Positions 35,548-45,040 of a stretch of 64,000 nt of DNA are shown here, in pieces. The first letter of the stretch is position 1. Each line of letters begins with the position of its first letter. Location: the NCBI GenBank assembly GCA_963798485.1, contig CAWCTR010000014.1:64001-128000 (forward strand), read 5' to 3'. Origin of the DNA: an uncultured delta proteobacterium (GTDB lineage: Bacteria > Desulfobacterota > Desulfomonilia > UBA1062). Made by a program: the position numbers and the translations under genes. The notes beneath the pieces are model-generated. The model saw only the letters and a program-made list of their open reading frames with translations, was not told where the DNA came from and did not search any database.

Positions 35548-35670
35548 AAAGATTCAAACCTGGGATTTCAAAAGAGATCAGCTTTCTAGACAATCGATGA
35601 GCATGAGCTTGGAATTAAATACGGACCGAGGCACATCGCCTGCGGCCCGATATTTCCTTAACAATACAAG

Positions 35671-36738
35671 CTACAGAATATTAGAAATCAGGAACAACGT
35701 GAGCATGGACTTAGAGGGCAGTATTTCTCGGTGTCCACAGAATGTCTTTTGCTCTACACCCTCAAACCTGGACTTGGTGAAGTATAATCCCTTGAAGCTG
35801 TATATCATGTTTCCATACTTATAGAGCAGTCGGATAATCATCTTCGTGAGCTTTGACTCACAGGGCGCATCCTTCTCATCCACAACCGCCGGGCACAGGC
35901 CGAGGTGCAAATACTTCACCCCCTCTTTCTTGAAGACTTCCATGGCATGGCACATGAGGGGATAGAAGATCCCCTGCTTGAATTTGTTGCTGAACCGGGA
36001 GATGTTGGGTACATAGCTGACTACCTTGCCGTCCTTATAGAGCGGATCGAAAAAGATAAAGCCTACGAGTTTTCCTTCATGATACGCACAGAACTTTCTT
36101 GTACCTTCCTGGTATTCCTGGTCCATGGGACGGATGAGAAAAACGACCTCACGGTTTCTAACCTTGCGGGTCTTGAGCCATTCCTTTGTAAGCTGGCGGC
36201 ACCCATCTTCTGAACTGTTCTCTTCTATCGTCACACCCTCCTTCGTGGCATGATTTACCGATGTCCTCAGGACCTGTTTTTTCTTGCCCTTGAGATCCCA
36301 TTTCTCAAGATCGACCACTGATTCGATACCAAACTGGGTAGCGTAATACCCTAACTTCTCATGAAGAAATTCTGCCATACCCTGAGAGATCTGGACAAAG
36401 GCAGTGTTTGTCCTATCCTTGAGAAACTCCCGGATGAGGAGTTCCCTGTCTTTCACATCACAGATAGGGTCAGCAAGGACGAACCGGGTACCCCATTTCT
36501 TCCTGTAGGTTATGAACCCGACCCCTGGTATATCGAAAAAGTGCATTTCCGGTTGCAGCATTGAAAAGGACAGGCAGTGATCACCGTATTTCCTGAGGTA
36601 GGAGATCCTCTCGTCGAAGGAGAATACATCAATCCCTGCACGGGTGCCGGGTCTGTAATCATCTATGGAGATAACCTTGGCCGGGAAGAACTCCCTTGGA
36701 CTCCTTACGAGTGGTTTTACCTGCGCCATGGTACTCAT
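35671..36738 (-). CDS. Stand-alone DUF2156 / LPG-synthase C-terminal domain protein (aminoacyl-tRNA-dependent transferase fold)
   Basis: VLADPIC, FVQI, GIES.VDL..WDLKGKKKQVLR..VN, LVGFIFFDP, FKKEG...LHLGLCP, YSFKGLYFTKSRF; no TM segments. Confidence 0.8.
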   Translation of the reverse strand: MSTMAQVKPLVRSPREFFPAKVISIDDYRPGTRAGIDVFSFDERISYLRKYGDHCLSFSMLQPEMHFFDIPGVGFITYRKKWGTRFVLADPICDVKDRELLIREFLKDRTNTAFVQISQGMAEFLHEKLGYYATQFGIESVVDLEKWDLKGKKKQVLRTSVNHATKEGVTIEENSSEDGCRQLTKEWLKTRKVRNREVVFLIRPMDQEYQEGTRKFCAYHEGKLVGFIFFDPLYKDGKVVSYVPNISRFSNKFKQGIFYPLMCHAMEVFKKEGVKYLHLGLCPAVVDEKDAPCESKLTKMIIRLLYKYGNMIYSFKGLYFTKSRFEGVEQKTFCGHREILPSKSMLTLFLISNIL

Positions 36739-36774
36739 ATATGCATCTCTCCTTTTTTATTATCCGTTTATGCC

Positions 36775-38382
36775 CTAGCGATTTTTCCCGAAACGCTCAT
36801 GGCTCGTGACCCAATCTAAAGATGAGAGAGCTCCTGCCAGCGAGATCTCGCCTGCTATCACGACTGCTGCTGCAATCTCTGCGAACTTTAGGACCTTGCC
36901 CTGACCACAGCATCCAAGGATATCGAGACACTCTCTCTGGGTAGGAAGGCCGGTGCCTCCTCCATGGGTGGCCACAATGAGAGAAGGCAGCGTTACTGAA
37001 CCATAGAGGTCCCCTTCCGGTGTTATCTCGGTATAGATGAGAGTCGCAGCAGACTCAGCGACATTGGCTACATCCTGTCCGGTGGCAATAAAGAGTGCTG
37101 TCAGTGCGTTTGCCGCATGAAGGGCATTGCTTGAAGAACCTGCCATAAAGGCGCCAAGGTTGCCTACTCGGCAAAGATGGTCGAGGGTCTCCGGGTCAAC
37201 CCGCATATGCTGGATCATGACCTCTCGCGGAATGACGATCTCCGCCGTGACTCTCTTCCCTCGTGTATTCATGGTATTGACCACAGAAGCCTTCTTATCA
37301 GTAGCAAAGTTTGATTCCATATAGAAGTGGCGGACGGTATTTACCTGGGCAAGGATCCAACTGCATGCCGTGAAGGTGGCCATACTCACCATATTCTGCC
37401 CTGCCGCATCACCGGTGAAGTAATTGAACCGTAGATATACGAACTTGCTTGCCTGGTATCTTTCGACATTGAGAAACTTTGCTACCCTGGAACAGGACTC
37501 GGCCTGCTGGCGGATCTCATCGATATGTTCATCAATCCATACCACGAAGTCCCTGGCTTCCCGAGCTGAATCGAATGCAAAAGCAGGTGCCCTCTGCATA
37601 CGGTCTTCTACGACGGTGGTGGTCGTACCGCCGCACATGTTGATGATCTTCATGCCCCTGTTGTATGATGCCACCAGAGTCCCTTCGCTGGTGCATAGGG
37701 GGATGAGGAACTCGCCCTTTGCATGCTCGCCGTTGATCTTGACAGGCCCTGCAAACCCAAGGGGTATCTGCGCTACGCCGGTGAAATTCTCAATATTGCC
37801 CTTTGTGACTATAGGATCAAAAGAATGGTGTTTAACATGATGAAGGTGAACGCCGGTATATTCTTCTACGAAATCCTGTCGTTGACGGACGATATCCATA
37901 TCGTAATTATTCTGCTTGTCGCATGGAACCTTTTTCTGTGTTGTTCTCGTTTCAATAACCGAGTCCTTAGCTTCCAGATCCAGTATGCCGTAAGGATCTG
38001 TATTGCAGGATATGGTGATCTGATGTTCGATATTTTTCGCAAGGGCGATTGCCCGTGCATGAAACTCTACATCCATCCCCATGGGGAAAGGAAGAGGCTG
38101 GTCCTGGTTTATCTCATTGGCCTTGAGTTTAGTTCCGTTATTCCTCATGATCACATCATCCAAAGGGATTTCGAGGCCATTGATGCAAATGCCTGTAATG
38201 CCTGTAATTAAACCATCTTTCATAGGATTTTTAATAGTGAATGATACTCCGTCGTCGACATTCTTCAGGCTTCCGATGGAATAGATCTTCTTCAAGATGA
38301 GAGGAGATATCGCAATATGATTCTTTGGTTCCGATATCCTGCTGATAGACACAAGTCTTGGTTCTGTCGTTGTATTTCGCAT
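36775..38382 (-). CDS. Class I HMG-CoA reductase with an extra N-terminal domain
   Basis: IENFTG, TSEGTLVASYNRG, TGDAAGQNM, NFATDKK, ATGQDVAN, HGGGTGLP, SHE. Start placed at ATG 38382 behind SD AGGAAGGGA. Confidence 0.9.
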   Translation of the reverse strand: MRNTTTEPRLVSISRISEPKNHIAISPLILKKIYSIGSLKNVDDGVSFTIKNPMKDGLITGITGICINGLEIPLDDVIMRNNGTKLKANEINQDQPLPFPMGMDVEFHARAIALAKNIEHQITISCNTDPYGILDLEAKDSVIETRTTQKKVPCDKQNNYDMDIVRQRQDFVEEYTGVHLHHVKHHSFDPIVTKGNIENFTGVAQIPLGFAGPVKINGEHAKGEFLIPLCTSEGTLVASYNRGMKIINMCGGTTTTVVEDRMQRAPAFAFDSAREARDFVVWIDEHIDEIRQQAESCSRVAKFLNVERYQASKFVYLRFNYFTGDAAGQNMVSMATFTACSWILAQVNTVRHFYMESNFATDKKASVVNTMNTRGKRVTAEIVIPREVMIQHMRVDPETLDHLCRVGNLGAFMAGSSSNALHAANALTALFIATGQDVANVAESAATLIYTEITPEGDLYGSVTLPSLIVATHGGGTGLPTQRECLDILGCCGQGKVLKFAEIAAAVVIAGEISLAGALSSLDWVTSHERFGKNR

Positions 38383-38640
38383 TATTCCCTTCCTTTCATT
38401 AAATCTGGGAAAAAATCCCAACTTACCGATTGTTGTTTTTTCCATCCAGGGATATTAACCATGTCCCAATGATAATCACGAAACGTGCCAAGATTGGGCA
38501 AATAAATTACGAAACTACCCTCAGTCGATTATCAGGCGCTGTCTAGTACTATTTTTAGTATAACATGTTATTTCGATAAGTTATAAAACATGATCCTAGT
38601 GGATAATATTTTGTTATGTGAATTATTTTTCCACTATCCG

Positions 38641-41540: not shown

Positions 41541-43400
41541 ATGGGCGGTGGGTACGCAGGAAAATTCTTACATGTTAATTTAACAAATGCGACCTGTTCT
41601 GATTTCATAATTGATGATGCCACATTGAAAAAATGCATCGGTGGAAGTTGTCTTGCCGCCAAGCTATTTCTCGACAGGTATCCACTTGATCTCGATCCCC
41701 TGGCCCCGGAAAACCCGTTCATGATCATGACAGGCCCTATGGTGGGCAGCGGATTCCCCGGCACATCAAGGTTCAGCATCTGTGCAAAATCCCCCCAGAC
41801 AGGGATATGGGGTGAGTCCGCCTGCGGGGGCACCTTCAGCCCGGATCTGAAACGCTCAGGATACGATGGTATCATAATAGAAGGAAAGGCGAATACCCCC
41901 GTGTACCTATCCATAACGGATGATGGTGCGCAGATCATGGATGCATCGCATTTGTGGGGCAAGGACATCTACGAAGCCACGGACATCCTCAAGGCACCGG
42001 ACAAATCGCTCAAGATCCTTGCTATCGGGCCTGCCGGTGAGAATCTTGTAAAGATAGCCGCCATCGGAAATGACAAGGGCCATTTCAGCGGAAGGACAGG
42101 CCTCGGCGCCGTCATGGGCTCCAAAAACCTGAAGGCCATCATTGTGAAGGGCTCCAAAAAGCTCACCAAGGCCGATGAAGAGAAGTATAAACAGTACTTG
42201 AAGGAAGCCATGCAGGAGGTGAAAGACTCGGCCCTTGCAGACGGTATCCACCAGATGGGGTCCGACGCCAACATGGACCTCGGCATGATCTCGGGTGATG
42301 TTCCGGTCAAGAACTGGACCGTGGGCGAGGACTTCATGCTCTCATCCAGCCTGAGCGGACCGACCATGAAGGAAAAATATCTCACCAAGGCCCATGCATG
42401 CTCGAACTGCCCGGTTGCCTGCAAAAGGGTGGTCAAGGTGGACGAAGGCCCCTTCAAAACTGATGAAGGTCCCGGGCCTGAATATGAAACATGCGGCACC
42501 TTCGGCACCATGATGATGAACCCAGATCTGGCAGCCGTGATCAAGGCCAATGAGCTCTGCAACAAGTACGGCATGGACACTATCAGCTGCGGTTCGGCTA
42601 TTGCCCTGGCCATGGAGCTTTATGAAAAGGGCATTATTACAAAAGACGACCTGGGTGGGCTCGATCTCACCTGGGGAAACATGGATGCAGCGATTGCATT
42701 GATCAAGAAGATCGCATACCGGGAGGGTTTCGGTGATATCCTGGCCGAAGGGAGCGTGAAGGCAGCCCTTAAGATAGGCAAAGGTGCCATTGATTTAGTA
42801 GTCTCGGTCAAGGGCCTTGAGGCCCCCATGCACGACCCCAGGGGTTTCCACGGTATGGGACTTGCCTACATGATGTCAAACAGGGGGGCCTGTCACCTCC
42901 AGCATGCAGTACTCGCAACAGAGCAAGGCATGGCCTCATGGCCGCAGCTCTTCGACATGAAAGACGACTACGTGGGCACCACCAGCGTCGGCAAGGCAGC
43001 GCTTGTATACAATTCCGAGAACTACGGCATCCTGGGGAATTCGCTCGCTATCTGCCACTATCTCATCGATATATTAAAACCCGAGACCATCCTGGGAGCC
43101 TTCAATGCCATCACCGGTTGGGACCTGAGTCAAAAGGACCTTCTCAAGGCCGGCATGAGGGACTGGACACTGAAACGCGGATTCAACAACCTGCTGGGCA
43201 TCACCGTGAAAGACGACAAGCTCCCCAAGAAGCTCCTGACTGCCCTCGAAGAGGGTGGGGGTGCAGGTTCCGTACCTGATGTCGAGCTTCTCCTGAAAGA
43301 GTATTATGCGCTACGCGGCCTCGACGAGAGGGGCTACCCAAAGATAGAGATGCTTACCGAGCTTGGCCTGGATGAACTTAAGAACAGACTCTATACATAA
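41541..43400 (+). CDS. aor: Aldehyde:ferredoxin oxidoreductase (W/Mo-pterin AOR family)
   Basis: KSPQTG..GES..GG, IGPAGEN, GRTGLGAVMGSKNLKA, CSNCPVAC, PEYET, GMDTIS, HDPR, RGACH. Confidence 0.95.
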   Translation: MGGGYAGKFLHVNLTNATCSDFIIDDATLKKCIGGSCLAAKLFLDRYPLDLDPLAPENPFMIMTGPMVGSGFPGTSRFSICAKSPQTGIWGESACGGTFSPDLKRSGYDGIIIEGKANTPVYLSITDDGAQIMDASHLWGKDIYEATDILKAPDKSLKILAIGPAGENLVKIAAIGNDKGHFSGRTGLGAVMGSKNLKAIIVKGSKKLTKADEEKYKQYLKEAMQEVKDSALADGIHQMGSDANMDLGMISGDVPVKNWTVGEDFMLSSSLSGPTMKEKYLTKAHACSNCPVACKRVVKVDEGPFKTDEGPGPEYETCGTFGTMMMNPDLAAVIKANELCNKYGMDTISCGSAIALAMELYEKGIITKDDLGGLDLTWGNMDAAIALIKKIAYREGFGDILAEGSVKAALKIGKGAIDLVVSVKGLEAPMHDPRGFHGMGLAYMMSNRGACHLQHAVLATEQGMASWPQLFDMKDDYVGTTSVGKAALVYNSENYGILGNSLAICHYLIDILKPETILGAFNAITGWDLSQKDLLKAGMRDWTLKRGFNNLLGITVKDDKLPKKLLTALEEGGGAGSVPDVELLLKEYYALRGLDERGYPKIEMLTELGLDELKNRLYT

Positions 43401-43430
43401 CACCTTAATCCTTAAGAGGAGGTATTTTTT

Positions 43431-43859
43431 ATGGCAAAAGTGAAGGCATTGACGCAGGAATGGATGGATGCATACAAGGCAGCGATCGTATCGGACCCTG
43501 ATTACAAGCAGATCGCCAAGGACTGGGAGGGGAGCGTTTCACTGATCGTGAATGCAGACCCATCCAAGGGAGTCCCCGAGCCTGTTTATCTCTTCCAGGA
43601 CTACTGGCACGGCGACGTGGGAGAGTTCATTGTGTGCGACAAGGCAAAGGCCGAGAGCGCAAAGTTCGTCATGACCGGCGACTATTCCCGCTGGAAGCAG
43701 GTAGCCCTCAAAGAGCTTGATGCCACCAAGGGACTCCTGCAGGGCAAGCTGAAGATGAAGGGTGACCTGCCTTATGTGGTGAGGAACATCAAGGTAGTCA
43801 ACAAGGTCGTCGATGTCCTTGGAAAGTTTGAAACACAATGGCCTGATGACCCTGCATGA
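43431..43859 (+). CDS. SCP2 sterol/lipid-binding domain protein
   Basis: EW..AY......Y...AKDWEG, FVMTGDYSRWK, LDATKGLLQGKLKMKGD. Confidence 0.85.
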   Translation: MAKVKALTQEWMDAYKAAIVSDPDYKQIAKDWEGSVSLIVNADPSKGVPEPVYLFQDYWHGDVGEFIVCDKAKAESAKFVMTGDYSRWKQVALKELDATKGLLQGKLKMKGDLPYVVRNIKVVNKVVDVLGKFETQWPDDPA

Positions 43860-43876
43860 TTAATAAGGAGAGATAA

Positions 43877-45040
43877 ATGGCTTACGATTCAGATTTATCA
43901 TTCAATTATTTTGGACCGACGAAGATTATCTTCGGGGTGGATTCATCGAAAGATGTTGAAATCGAGATGAGCTATTTAGGAGGCGCAAAGGCTGTCGTTG
44001 TCACTGATCAGGGCATTATCAATGCAGGCCTCATCGATCACATCGTGAAGGCGCTGGGCAGCAAGTGCGTAGGTGTATTCAGCGATATTCCTCAGGACAC
44101 CGGGGTGGAGGTAGTGGATGCAGGCGCGTCCTTTGCCAAAAAGAACGGTGCAGATATCGTTGTCAGCGTAGGCGGAGGCAGTGTCATCGATACGGCCAAA
44201 GGCATGTGCATATTGCTTACTGAAGGCGGCAATCTGCGGGACTTCAATGGTGTCCAGCTGTTGTCAAGACCTCAGACTCCGCATGTTGTAATCCCCACTA
44301 CGGCAGGTACAGGCAGTGAAGTAACCAATGCCGCGGTTATCATGGATAAAGAGAGGGGCCAGAAGCGTCTGGTCGTTGAGAATTTCAACGTTCCAAGGCT
44401 TGCCATCCTTGACCCTAAGATGACGGTCAAACTGCCCAAGCTCATGACGGCAGGCACGGGCATGGATGCCATGACTCACGCAGTGGAGGCCCTGCATGTC
44501 ATACCGCATGAACCTATAACCGACGCCTTGGGCATCCATGCTATCCGGCTGCTCTTCCAATACCTGCCTGTATGTGTTGAGAACGGCACGGACCTCGTTG
44601 CCCGGGGTCAGGTACAGATCGCGGCCACTATTGCCGGATGGGCCTTTGGTATCGCGGGTGTGGGCAACGTGCATGCACTGGCCCACTCCATCGGGGCCGT
44701 TGCCCATGTGCCGCACGGCATTGCAAACGGCATCCTTCTGGCGGACTGTATGGAATTCAACCTAGAGAGCTGCCCCGATGCCTATGCCATGGTGGCCGAG
44801 GCCTTCGGGGTCCGCGATAAGGGCATGGATGACATGGATGCCGCCAAGGCAGCTATTGCCGCCATAAGAGAATTCACCAAGAAGATCTCGCACCCCCAGA
44901 GGCTCTCGGAGTGTAAGGTGAAAGAGGCCGATATCATAAAGGCTGCCGAGCTCAGCCTGAGCGACGGAGCCATCGTAAGCAACCCACGGCTCGTGCTCGA
45001 TGCATCCGAGGTACTCGAAATCTATAAAAAAGTACTCTAG
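43877..45040 (+). CDS. Iron-containing alcohol dehydrogenase
   Basis: GGGSVIDTAK, PTTAGTGSE, GMDAMTHAVE, HALAH, HGIAN. Confidence 0.95.
   Translation: MAYDSDLSFNYFGPTKIIFGVDSSKDVEIEMSYLGGAKAVVVTDQGIINAGLIDHIVKALGSKCVGVFSDIPQDTGVEVVDAGASFAKKNGADIVVSVGGGSVIDTAKGMCILLTEGGNLRDFNGVQLLSRPQTPHVVIPTTAGTGSEVTNAAVIMDKERGQKRLVVENFNVPRLAILDPKMTVKLPKLMTAGTGMDAMTHAVEALHVIPHEPITDALGIHAIRLLFQYLPVCVENGTDLVARGQVQIAATIAGWAFGIAGVGNVHALAHSIGAVAHVPHGIANGILLADCMEFNLESCPDAYAMVAEAFGVRDKGMDDMDAAKAAIAAIREFTKKISHPQRLSECKVKEADIIKAAELSLSDGAIVSNPRLVLDASEVLEIYKKVL

Follow-up and report, generated by a model that had tools for sequence, protein, structure and literature searches.

A two-gene unit in the 64,000-nucleotide stretch of DNA that we analysed (the window) may encode a route to an aminoacylated lipid. 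The first gene specifies what looks like a fatty acyl-CoA reductase of the FcrA type, which would make a fatty alcohol, and the second a soluble, stand-alone DUF2156 protein, which would esterify that alcohol with an amino acid taken from aminoacyl-tRNA. We put this reading at about even odds (a probability near 0.5), the transferase chemistry being a prediction. The reductase has been kept beside a soluble DUF2156 protein in many relatives among the sulfate reducers, which suggests an undescribed amino acid-fatty alcohol lipid. The initial annotation of this DNA had coupled a class I HMG-CoA reductase (HMGR) to a tRNA-dependent transferase in a pathway to an aminoacyl ester, with mevalonate or another acyl-CoA-derived alcohol as acceptor; the conserved pairing and a genome with MEP genes agree with that interpretation, whereas HMG-CoA reductase is the wrong functional label and mevalonate is an unlikely acceptor.

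The layout of the unit had been described correctly: both reading frames lie on the minus strand, separated by a 36-nucleotide gap with a GGAGAG Shine-Dalgarno sequence, and a hairpin follows downstream (Table 1). The GGAGAG lies 8 nucleotides upstream of the DUF2156 ATG. Read from its first ATG, the reductase frame spans 36775..38445 and yields a 556-residue form. Alignment of the orthologues shows that they start at the same M-R/G-N-x-T, and GGAAGGGA is found upstream of position 38382; given the coincident orthologue N-termini and this upstream sequence, the start at 38382, with a 535-residue product, is better than that at 38445. RNA folding gave the hairpin 3' of the unit an energy of -26.6 kcal/mol (z -3.68), equalled by none of 200 shuffles, and together with UAUUUAAUU it likely terminates the two-gene unit. 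A generic promoter and terminator scan returned nothing that exceeded shuffles and did not list the hairpin at 35616..35653.

Table 1. Features of the two-gene unit, in positions of the window
Feature	Position	Strand	Basis
FcrA-type reductase with Lad domain (535 aa)	36775..38382	-	PF00368 2.4e-123 and PF25653 4.9e-24
Lad N-terminal beta-sandwich, about residues 25-145	37948..38310	-	AF2 model, fold match
HMGR-fold catalytic domain, residues 165-532	36787..37890	-	closest solved relative archaeal HMGR 6hr7, E 2e-87
Intergenic spacer, 36 nt, with ribosome-binding site GGAGAG	36739..36774	-	direct sequence reading
Soluble stand-alone DUF2156 protein (aminoacyl-tRNA transferase fold), 355 aa	35671..36738	-	PF09924 9.2e-54
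GC-rich hairpin followed by UAUUUAAUU; likely terminator	35616..35653 (approximate limits)	-	RNA fold

The Pfam match of the reductase to PF00368 (2.4e-123) covers residues 186-553 of the 556-residue form. The class I catalytic set of Glu, Lys, Asp and a C-terminal His, picked out in the initial annotation, is confirmed by alignment with human HMGR, in which Glu233, Lys363, Asp437 and His528 (535-residue numbering) align with human E559, K691, D767 and H866; all four are unchanged in 81 of 81 related sequences. Lys376 is the equivalent of K704. At the positions of human S684, K735 and L862, the reductase has Glu356, Gly407 and Trp524, and the same 81 of 81 comparison finds D or E at the first of these, A, G, C, S or T at the second and W at the third. 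The canonical S/K/L pocket triple occurs in just two among the 150 nearest representatives of the reductase, and the score against TIGR00533, the NCBIfam HMGR equivalog, is 350.8 bits, below the cut-off of 441.8. FcrA is an HMGR-derived fatty acyl-CoA reductase, with the roles of the pocket residues set out by Grossi et al. (2025, ISME J; PMC11948995), and is defined there by a retained catalytic tetrad, three changes in the HMG pocket and, in part of the family, a Lad beta domain. The characterised FcrA enzymes are those of N. pharaonis and P. breve. By its tetrad, the three pocket changes and its Lad domain, the supposed HMG-CoA reductase thus looks like a fatty acyl-CoA reductase of the FcrA type, and the pocket signature and the Lad domain contradict the earlier functional label. 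The same two features make mevalonate improbable as the alcohol and a fatty alcohol the likely product. The Glu356 change had also been considered as a sign of an amine-bearing substrate (aminoacyl-CoA), an idea that we downgraded because the same change defines FcrA. Lys735 appears in print as 'Lys795' in PMC11948995.

The N-terminal domain of the reductase had been overlooked in the initial annotation. This Lad domain (PF25653, 115 residues, 4.9e-24 in Pfam) has an AF2 model with a mean pLDDT of 80.9, about 90 across residues 30-140, and at least 10 strands; its closest fold is the beta subunit of a C-glycoside deglycosidase (Z 14.7, rmsd 2.4, 116 residues). Lad is described as a carrier domain for long alkyl chains (PMC11948995). 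It also occurs fused to a URO-D-like domain, without FcrA (G033, G269:C90), and is not specific to the pairing of FcrA with DUF2156.

The isoprenoid genes of the host were sought in its genome assembly (4.3 Mb, 97.5% complete, 7% contamination). Neither the N nor the C domain of HMGS had a match in the window or the whole genome, mevalonate-diphosphate decarboxylase had none in the whole genome, and the mevalonate kinase model found there just a weak, sub-threshold GHMP match. The MEP genes Dxr and IspH are present. The earlier remark that the window has no genes for HMG-CoA synthase or mevalonate kinase is therefore correct and extends to the whole genome, and the comparison of MEP with MVA genes that it proposed came out on the MEP side, with no MVA genes found.

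The second protein matches PF09924 (9.2e-54 in Pfam) over profile positions 4-296 of 298, and a profile search matches it to the L-PGS structure 4v36 (E 2.7e-23). Its AF2 model (pLDDT 82.1) retrieves 4v36 in Foldseek (E 3.3e-22, TM 0.71/0.80) and then 4v35 (E 6.5e-20); the top solved matches are aminoacyl-phosphatidylglycerol synthase domains, followed by FemX and Sbb17, all of them aminoacyl-tRNA transferases. A basic helix at residues 152-166 lies between the two GNAT halves, with K152, K154 and R158 invariant and K150 and K153 nearly so. As the initial annotation had stated, the 355-residue protein is soluble: no transmembrane segment was found (hydropathy averaged over 19 residues peaks at 0.9), and the MprF-type flippase or membrane domain is absent (NF033480 score 103.7 versus a cut-off of 600). 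Longer, fused relatives were looked for and not found, which counts as weak evidence. We infer from sequence and fold that the protein belongs to the MprF-synthase type of tandem-GNAT aminoacyl-tRNA transferases, with use of the aminoacyl-tRNA donor predicted.

To see how widely the two genes occur together, we collected 77 genome loci by way of the DUF2156 protein, six of them cut by contig ends. FcrA-Lad adjoins DUF2156 in 51 of the 77 (39 in the order FcrA then DUF2156, 12 in the reverse), a count inflated by kinship, since a single phylum contributes most of the loci. The pairing, for which the initial annotation had called for a neighbourhood survey, is thus not unique to this genome, which itself holds a second pair. 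That second pair, which lies on a different contig, had not been noticed before; between the two pairs FcrA is 74.6% identical and DUF2156 62%. The paired genes diverge together (r = 0.92): in 44 of 50 loci, whichever of the two pairs is nearer for one gene is also nearer for the other. Tandem duplicated pairs occur at three loci (L049, L050, L079). In a further 16 of the 77 loci, an unrelated thioester or fatty-acyl reductase, PF07993, replaces FcrA. The DUF2156 proteins of these 16 loci group in one clade (SH-aLRT 100), which requires a single change of partner on the tree, and a swap to an unrelated reductase beside one DUF2156 clade is what would be expected if the transferase needs an alcohol-forming step. 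The scores of the PF07993 partner fall well short of the curated cut-offs for all named reductase families, and its substrate is for that reason a matter of inference. Four of the 77 loci have no reductase neighbour despite room for one.

Surveyed from the Lad side, DUF2156 adjoins in 24 of 38 metagenome loci. It is absent beside some close FcrA-Lad genes (L104, L105, L148) and never found beside the more distant Lad-FcrA genes L126-L131. Setting synteny neighbours aside, the recurrent neighbours across the 77 loci are a methyltransferase, Fe-ADH and a C45 protein; a SAM methyltransferase accompanies 35 of the 51 FcrA loci, and none is a neighbour in the window. In keeping with the FcrA assignment, a paralogue of the reductase (H3) overlaps a gene whose score against the long-chain acyl-CoA synthetase model, 666 bits, exceeds the cut-off of 625. 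No such pairing of FcrA with a ligase was found within 1.5 kb at the loci of the three nearest H3 orthologues (L133-L135), and ligases of weak similarity adjoin more distant homologues (L145, L149, L151, L153). Neither the pairing of FcrA with DUF2156 nor the predicted chemistry was found among the papers listed in searches of the openly accessible literature, in which PMC11948995 was covered by its main text, and no paper there joins DUF2156 with HMG-CoA reductase. The words 'aminoacyl' and 'MprF' are absent from the main text of PMC11948995.

The pathway that we propose would begin with the FcrA-type enzyme, which, with its HMGR fold and tetrad, would reduce a long-chain acyl-CoA to a primary alcohol in a four-electron reaction. 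As a prediction this step is well supported, by sequence and by the characterised homologue. The alkyl chain would presumably be held by the Lad beta-sandwich, which could possibly hand the fatty alcohol to the DUF2156 protein. With this alcohol as hydroxyl acceptor and aminoacyl-tRNA as donor, the DUF2156 protein would then form an O-aminoacyl fatty alcohol, an ester that as a single-chain lipid would be cationic or zwitterionic. In a third step, proposed for relatives only, the adjacent SAM methyltransferase would probably methylate this product. We tentatively suggest that there may well be undescribed lipids of this kind in the Desulfobacterota, namely O-aminoacyl fatty alcohols that are amino-acid analogues of wax esters and are N-methylated in many lineages.

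The conserved adjacency of FcrA and DUF2156 fits equally well with an indirect link, in which the FcrA alcohol enters an alkyl-glycerol, ether or other hydroxyl lipid and DUF2156 aminoacylates that lipid. According to PMC8913301, the bacterial DUF2156 enzymes characterised so far all act on glycerolipids, and ether-lipid roles are proposed in PMC11948995 for FcrA where WS/DGAT is missing. We nevertheless consider this unlikely, given that ether-lipid genes (PlsC-like, AGPS) do not recur in the 77 loci and that the two-gene unit is found alone in varied gene contexts.

It is less plausible still that the two proteins serve separate pathways, with FcrA supplying wax esters or other uses, DUF2156 acting on phosphatidylglycerol or an unrelated acceptor, and the adjacency being inherited synteny. 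The kinship among the loci would favour this, as would the presence in this genome of a full-length MprF (855-residue frame) and of a WS/DGAT (391 bits versus a cut-off of 310), by which a fatty alcohol could feed wax esters here. However, an isolated synthase domain makes no aminoacyl-phosphatidylglycerol in E. coli, as reported in PMC8131360, and inherited synteny accords poorly with both gene orders, the swap to a non-homologous reductase, the tandem duplications and the co-diverging paralogous pairs. Moreover, WS/DGAT was found in none of three related genomes that bear the pair (G115, G209, G321), so that these relatives do not need the alcohol for wax esters.

A reversed order, in which the reductase would turn an aminoacyl thioester, formed by DUF2156 from tRNA on CoA or some other thiol, into an amino aldehyde or amino alcohol, is very improbable; no DUF2156 protein is known to have a thiol acceptor. 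Such a module would have no need of a neighbour that forms acyl-CoA; the named families that match the PF07993 partner best, all below threshold, are aminoacyl-thioester reductases (TIGR01746, Lys2-type, MxcG), and DUF2156 domains occur inside PKS lines beside carrier proteins (PMC3870968). The pocket changes of FcrA, however, fit a long alkyl chain, and so does the description of Lad as an alkyl carrier (PMC11948995). Finally, an ordinary HMG-CoA reductase making mevalonate, whether for isoprenoids or for an aminoacyl-mevalonate, is hardly credible: the strong PF00368 match and full tetrad would suit it, but the equivalents of S684, K735 and L862 are altered, the score falls under the TIGR00533 cut-off, HMGS, MK and MVD were not found in a genome that has MEP genes, and the characterised FcrA is described in PMC11948995 as not reducing HMG-CoA.

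If the FcrA-type reductase and the DUF2156 transferase do act in sequence on a fatty alcohol, a function would be gained for the numerous stand-alone DUF2156 proteins of bacteria, of which one search returned 452 homologues of similar length. Lipid aminoacylation that depends on tRNA is known for glycerolipids, through the MprF family, and has been known for fungal sterols since 2020. Its extension to simple alkyl chains would make the fatty alcohol a third kind of acceptor. The case would also be an instance of a broader rule that pairs HMGR-fold reductases with head-group enzymes (a kinase, a BtaA-like protein or DUF2156); the catalytic domain has distant relatives that are fused to hydroxyl-derivatising enzymes, namely APH/EcKL kinases and the BtaA-like DUF3419. 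According to the FcrA authors, fcrA often occurs without WS/DGAT and so must serve other pathways (PMC11948995). FcrA, described only in 2025, gains a conserved partner besides the wax-ester synthase. For annotation, FcrA-type genes are no evidence of a mevalonate pathway.

Among known systems, VlmA of valanimycin biosynthesis is likewise a soluble, stand-alone aminoacyl-tRNA transferase with a small-molecule acceptor; that acceptor is a hydroxylamine, and VlmA belongs to an actinomycete gene cluster without a reductase partner. The wax ester route (fatty acyl-CoA reductase and WS/DGAT) follows a common logic, from acyl-CoA to alcohol and then to an ester, but its donor is acyl-CoA and its product neutral, whereas the route proposed here would draw on aminoacyl-tRNA as donor and give a charged product. 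The C-terminal synthase domain of MprF (4v36, 4v34, 6lv0) shares PF09924, the tandem GNAT fold and the basic helix between the halves; unlike MprF, the present protein has 355 residues, about 22% identity, no flippase or membrane domain, and a reductase as its partner gene. With FcrA as described in PMC11948995, the reductase shares the HMGR class I fold, the catalytic tetrad, an acidic residue at S684, a small one at K735 and Trp at L862, the Lad domain and a host without the MVA pathway. There, FcrA is partnered by WS/DGAT for wax esters, with ether-lipid genes suggested as well, whereas the conserved partner here is a DUF2156 transferase. Known too are the fungal enzymes ErgS and ErdS, the ergosteryl-glycine and ergosteryl-aspartate synthases, in which DUF2156 likewise esterifies a non-glycerol lipid hydroxyl from aminoacyl-tRNA, ErgS being a free-standing enzyme that acts on the lipid alcohol ergosterol (PMC8913301). 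Their acceptor is a sterol and their host a eukaryote, whereas the acceptor proposed here is a linear fatty alcohol in the Desulfobacterota, with its putative maker encoded in the adjacent gene.

The reductase in the window, initially annotated as a class I HMG-CoA reductase (HMGR), does keep the catalytic set of that class: Glu233, Lys363, Asp437 and His528 align with Glu559, Lys691, Asp767 and His866 of human HMGR. The assigned function did not hold, however, as Glu356, Gly407 and Trp524 replace human Ser684, Lys735 and Leu862, and exactly these changes form the pocket signature of FcrA, an HMGR-derived fatty acyl-CoA reductase (Grossi et al. 2025, PMC11948995; the paper prints Lys735 as 'Lys795', but the numbering offset shows the intended residue). 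All 81 related locus-derived sequences carry Asp or Glu at the S684 position, Trp at the L862 position, and Ala, Gly, Cys, Ser or Thr at the K735 position. At the N-terminus, a 'Lad' domain of 10 strands containing a hydrophobic pocket is also described (Grossi et al., PMC11948995); the N-domain of the window reductase was modelled as a confident beta-sandwich (pLDDT 80.9), closest among solved folds to the non-catalytic/accessory beta subunit of C-glycoside deglycosidases (8qvc_B, Z 14.7; DgpB 7bvr_B, Z 13.9). On the HMGR-type model TIGR00533 the protein scores 350.8 bits, against a cut-off of 441.8. As the initial proposal of a product outside ordinary isoprenoid supply would lead one to expect, the genome (97.5% complete) encodes Dxr and IspH, has no match to HMG-CoA synthase or mevalonate-diphosphate decarboxylase, and has only a sub-threshold match to mevalonate kinase; three related pair-bearing genomes (G115, G209, G321) all have IspH and none has HMG-CoA synthase. 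HMGR identity was thus rejected on the pocket changes, the sub-cut-off score and the missing mevalonate genes, and the enzyme is, judged by its sequence, an FcrA. Elsewhere, PF25653 Lad is fused to a URO-D-like PF01208 domain that replaces the reductase, so Lad is not specific to HMGR-fold enzymes, whatever its Pfam name.

A 36-nt spacer separates the reductase gene from the DUF2156 gene, whose ATG is preceded by GGAGAG at 8 nt and whose stop is followed by a GC-rich hairpin and a U-rich run (-26.6 kcal/mol, z -3.68), a hairpin absent from the list of a generic terminator scan. The surrounding genes are housekeeping, with dCMP and dCTP deaminases, ThyX, a methyltransferase, tig and clpPX downstream; a divergent two-component pair lies upstream. 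Some relatives have a same-strand row of C45 protein, unknown, Fe-ADH, methyltransferase, FcrA and DUF2156; the window's own Fe-ADH is just 37% identical to the Fe-ADH of that row.

A profile from 30 members of the DUF2156 family matches the lysyl-phosphatidylglycerol synthase domain 4v36 (E 2.7e-23). The AF2 model (pLDDT 82.1) best matches L-PGS and A-PGS (E 3e-22, TM 0.7-0.8), then FemX and Sbb17, all of them aminoacyl-tRNA transferases, and the basic helix joining the GNAT halves is conserved in the family. No membrane segment was found in the window protein, which falls far under the score of the bifunctional MprF model. Elsewhere the genome encodes MprF at full length as well as a third stand-alone DUF2156, which shares its row with DUF4185, an alpha/beta hydrolase and a LysE exporter.

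Locations of the reductase-DUF2156 unit and of related features
Feature	Location	Strand	Remarks
Reductase	window 36775-38382, longer ORF to 38445	minus	535 aa; PF00368 2.4e-123, PF25653 'HMG-CoA_red_N' 4.9e-24 (Pfam)
Lad domain of reductase	window 37948-38310	minus	
DUF2156 protein	window 35671-36738	minus	355 aa; PF09924/DUF2156 9.2e-54 (Pfam)
Row of aldehyde:ferredoxin oxidoreductase, SCP2 lipid-carrier-like protein, Fe-alcohol dehydrogenase	window 41541-45040	plus	3 kb upstream of the pair, past the two-component system
HMGR-fold paralogue	own genome, C4:107993-109174 (L014)	plus	
HMGR-fold paralogue	own genome, C14:136835-138013 (L015)	minus	
HMGR-fold paralogue	own genome, C18:19620-21227 (L013)	minus	
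MprF	own genome, G000:C14:502859-503719		855-aa frame
Third DUF2156	own genome, L016:10041-10916 (G000 C7)	minus	291 aa; very divergent
Lad-PF01208 fusion	L157:5888-7477 (G033)	plus	
Lad-PF01208 fusion	L158:1956-3503 (G269)	minus	
Possible wax-ester locus	own genome, L159 (G000 C10:104001-119000)		in order: 624-aa Fe-ADH, unassigned 735-aa protein, 626-aa alpha/beta hydrolase, WS/DGAT, another hydrolase

The pairing noticed initially recurs widely. A DUF2156-alignment search, with one genome per species, gave 77 loci, nearly all in Desulfobacterota judging from record titles; by tblastn, FcrA-Lad adjoins DUF2156 in 51 (39 upstream, 12 downstream), and a ~436-aa PF07993 reductase lies downstream in 16. 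The remaining 10 have neither reductase, six being cut by contig ends and four having room. Conversely, scanning metagenomes with the Lad alignment yielded 38 loci, 24 with DUF2156 adjoining; the L097 record ends 64 residues into DUF2156, five have too little room to judge (L101, L102, L122 and the short fragments L116 and L125), and two close (L104, L105) and six distant (L126-L131) homologues have no DUF2156 beside them, nor does L148 in a related genome. Contig 18 of the same genome carries a second pair (FcrA 74.6%, DUF2156 62% identical), and across 50 loci the two genes agree in 44 cases on which of these two pairs is the closer (r = 0.92), indicating that the pairs diverged as units. 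Tandem duplicated modules also occur (L049, L050, L123, L124 and L079), ordered DUF-FcrA-DUF-FcrA, or DUF-PF07993-DUF-PF07993 in L079. The DUF2156 match falls into two overlapping pieces in L085, L120 and L121, which suggests a frameshift or assembly error. A small clade (L034, L042, L047, L053) nested among FcrA-linked DUF2156 proteins is without an adjoining reductase, the downstream sequence of L047 being only 808 nt.

As shown by its sequence together with the characterised homologue, the FcrA-type reductase is predicted to convert long-chain acyl-CoA to the alcohol. This fatty alcohol, perhaps carried by Lad, would be the acceptor of the DUF2156 transferase, which would use aminoacyl-tRNA to attach an amino acid to it as an ester; we put the probability of this reading at roughly one half. 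The strongest argument that the transferase needs the alcohol-forming step is the replacement of FcrA by a non-homologous acyl-thioester reductase; the DUF2156 proteins linked to PF07993 group in a single clade (SH-aLRT 100), so that the tree requires just one partner switch. Relatives would then probably methylate the product: of the 51 FcrA loci, 35 have a SAM methyltransferase of ~214 aa no more than 700 nt away, versus only 1 of the 16 PF07993 loci; this gene is not adjacent to the pair in the window. WS/DGAT was found in none of the three related pair genomes, which speaks against wax esters as the sink in those genomes; the window's own genome does have WS/DGAT. An indirect link, joining FcrA and DUF2156 through a more complex lipid, would agree just as well with the conserved pairing and is conceivable, if unlikely. 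Mere synteny, to be set against pairs diverging as units, is improbable, and a reversed order via an aminoacyl thioester is very improbable. True mevalonate synthesis, with the catalytic residues kept and the pathway genes missing, is hardly credible.

The genome holds four HMGR-fold (FcrA) paralogues. One of them, H3, sits in a row with overlapping ORFs (TetR, reductase, long-chain acyl-CoA synthetase), and the gene overlapping it passes the long-chain acyl-CoA synthetase model; another, H4, stands alone next to a transposase; its S684 position is still Ser, but the remaining two pocket positions are Val and Trp. The nearest 150 representatives (P0123-P0272) of 3735 catalytic-domain matches are seldom canonical: the pocket triple Ser/Lys/Leu occurs in only two of them. 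A Pfam scan of 40 of these 150 found HMGR behind an adenylation domain, with or without a carrier (10, including adenylation-carrier-HMGR), followed by an APH/EcKL-type kinase (16; HMGR-kinase, adenylation-carrier-HMGR-kinase), preceded by PilZ (5), with BtaA-like DUF3419 (2), or with an acyl-CoA-binding domain (HMGR-ACBP, 1). Most of these fusions look uncharacterised; they fit a view of the HMGR fold as a general thioester-to-alcohol module, with a further enzyme acting on the new hydroxyl, and together suggest a family of alcohol-forming modules. Neither the FcrA-DUF2156 pairing nor the predicted chemistry was found in the open literature searched, and the main text of the FcrA paper (PMC11948995) contains neither 'aminoacyl' nor 'MprF'. 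The components themselves have published counterparts, in FcrA on the one hand and in the lipid-aminoacylating DUF2156 enzymes on the other.
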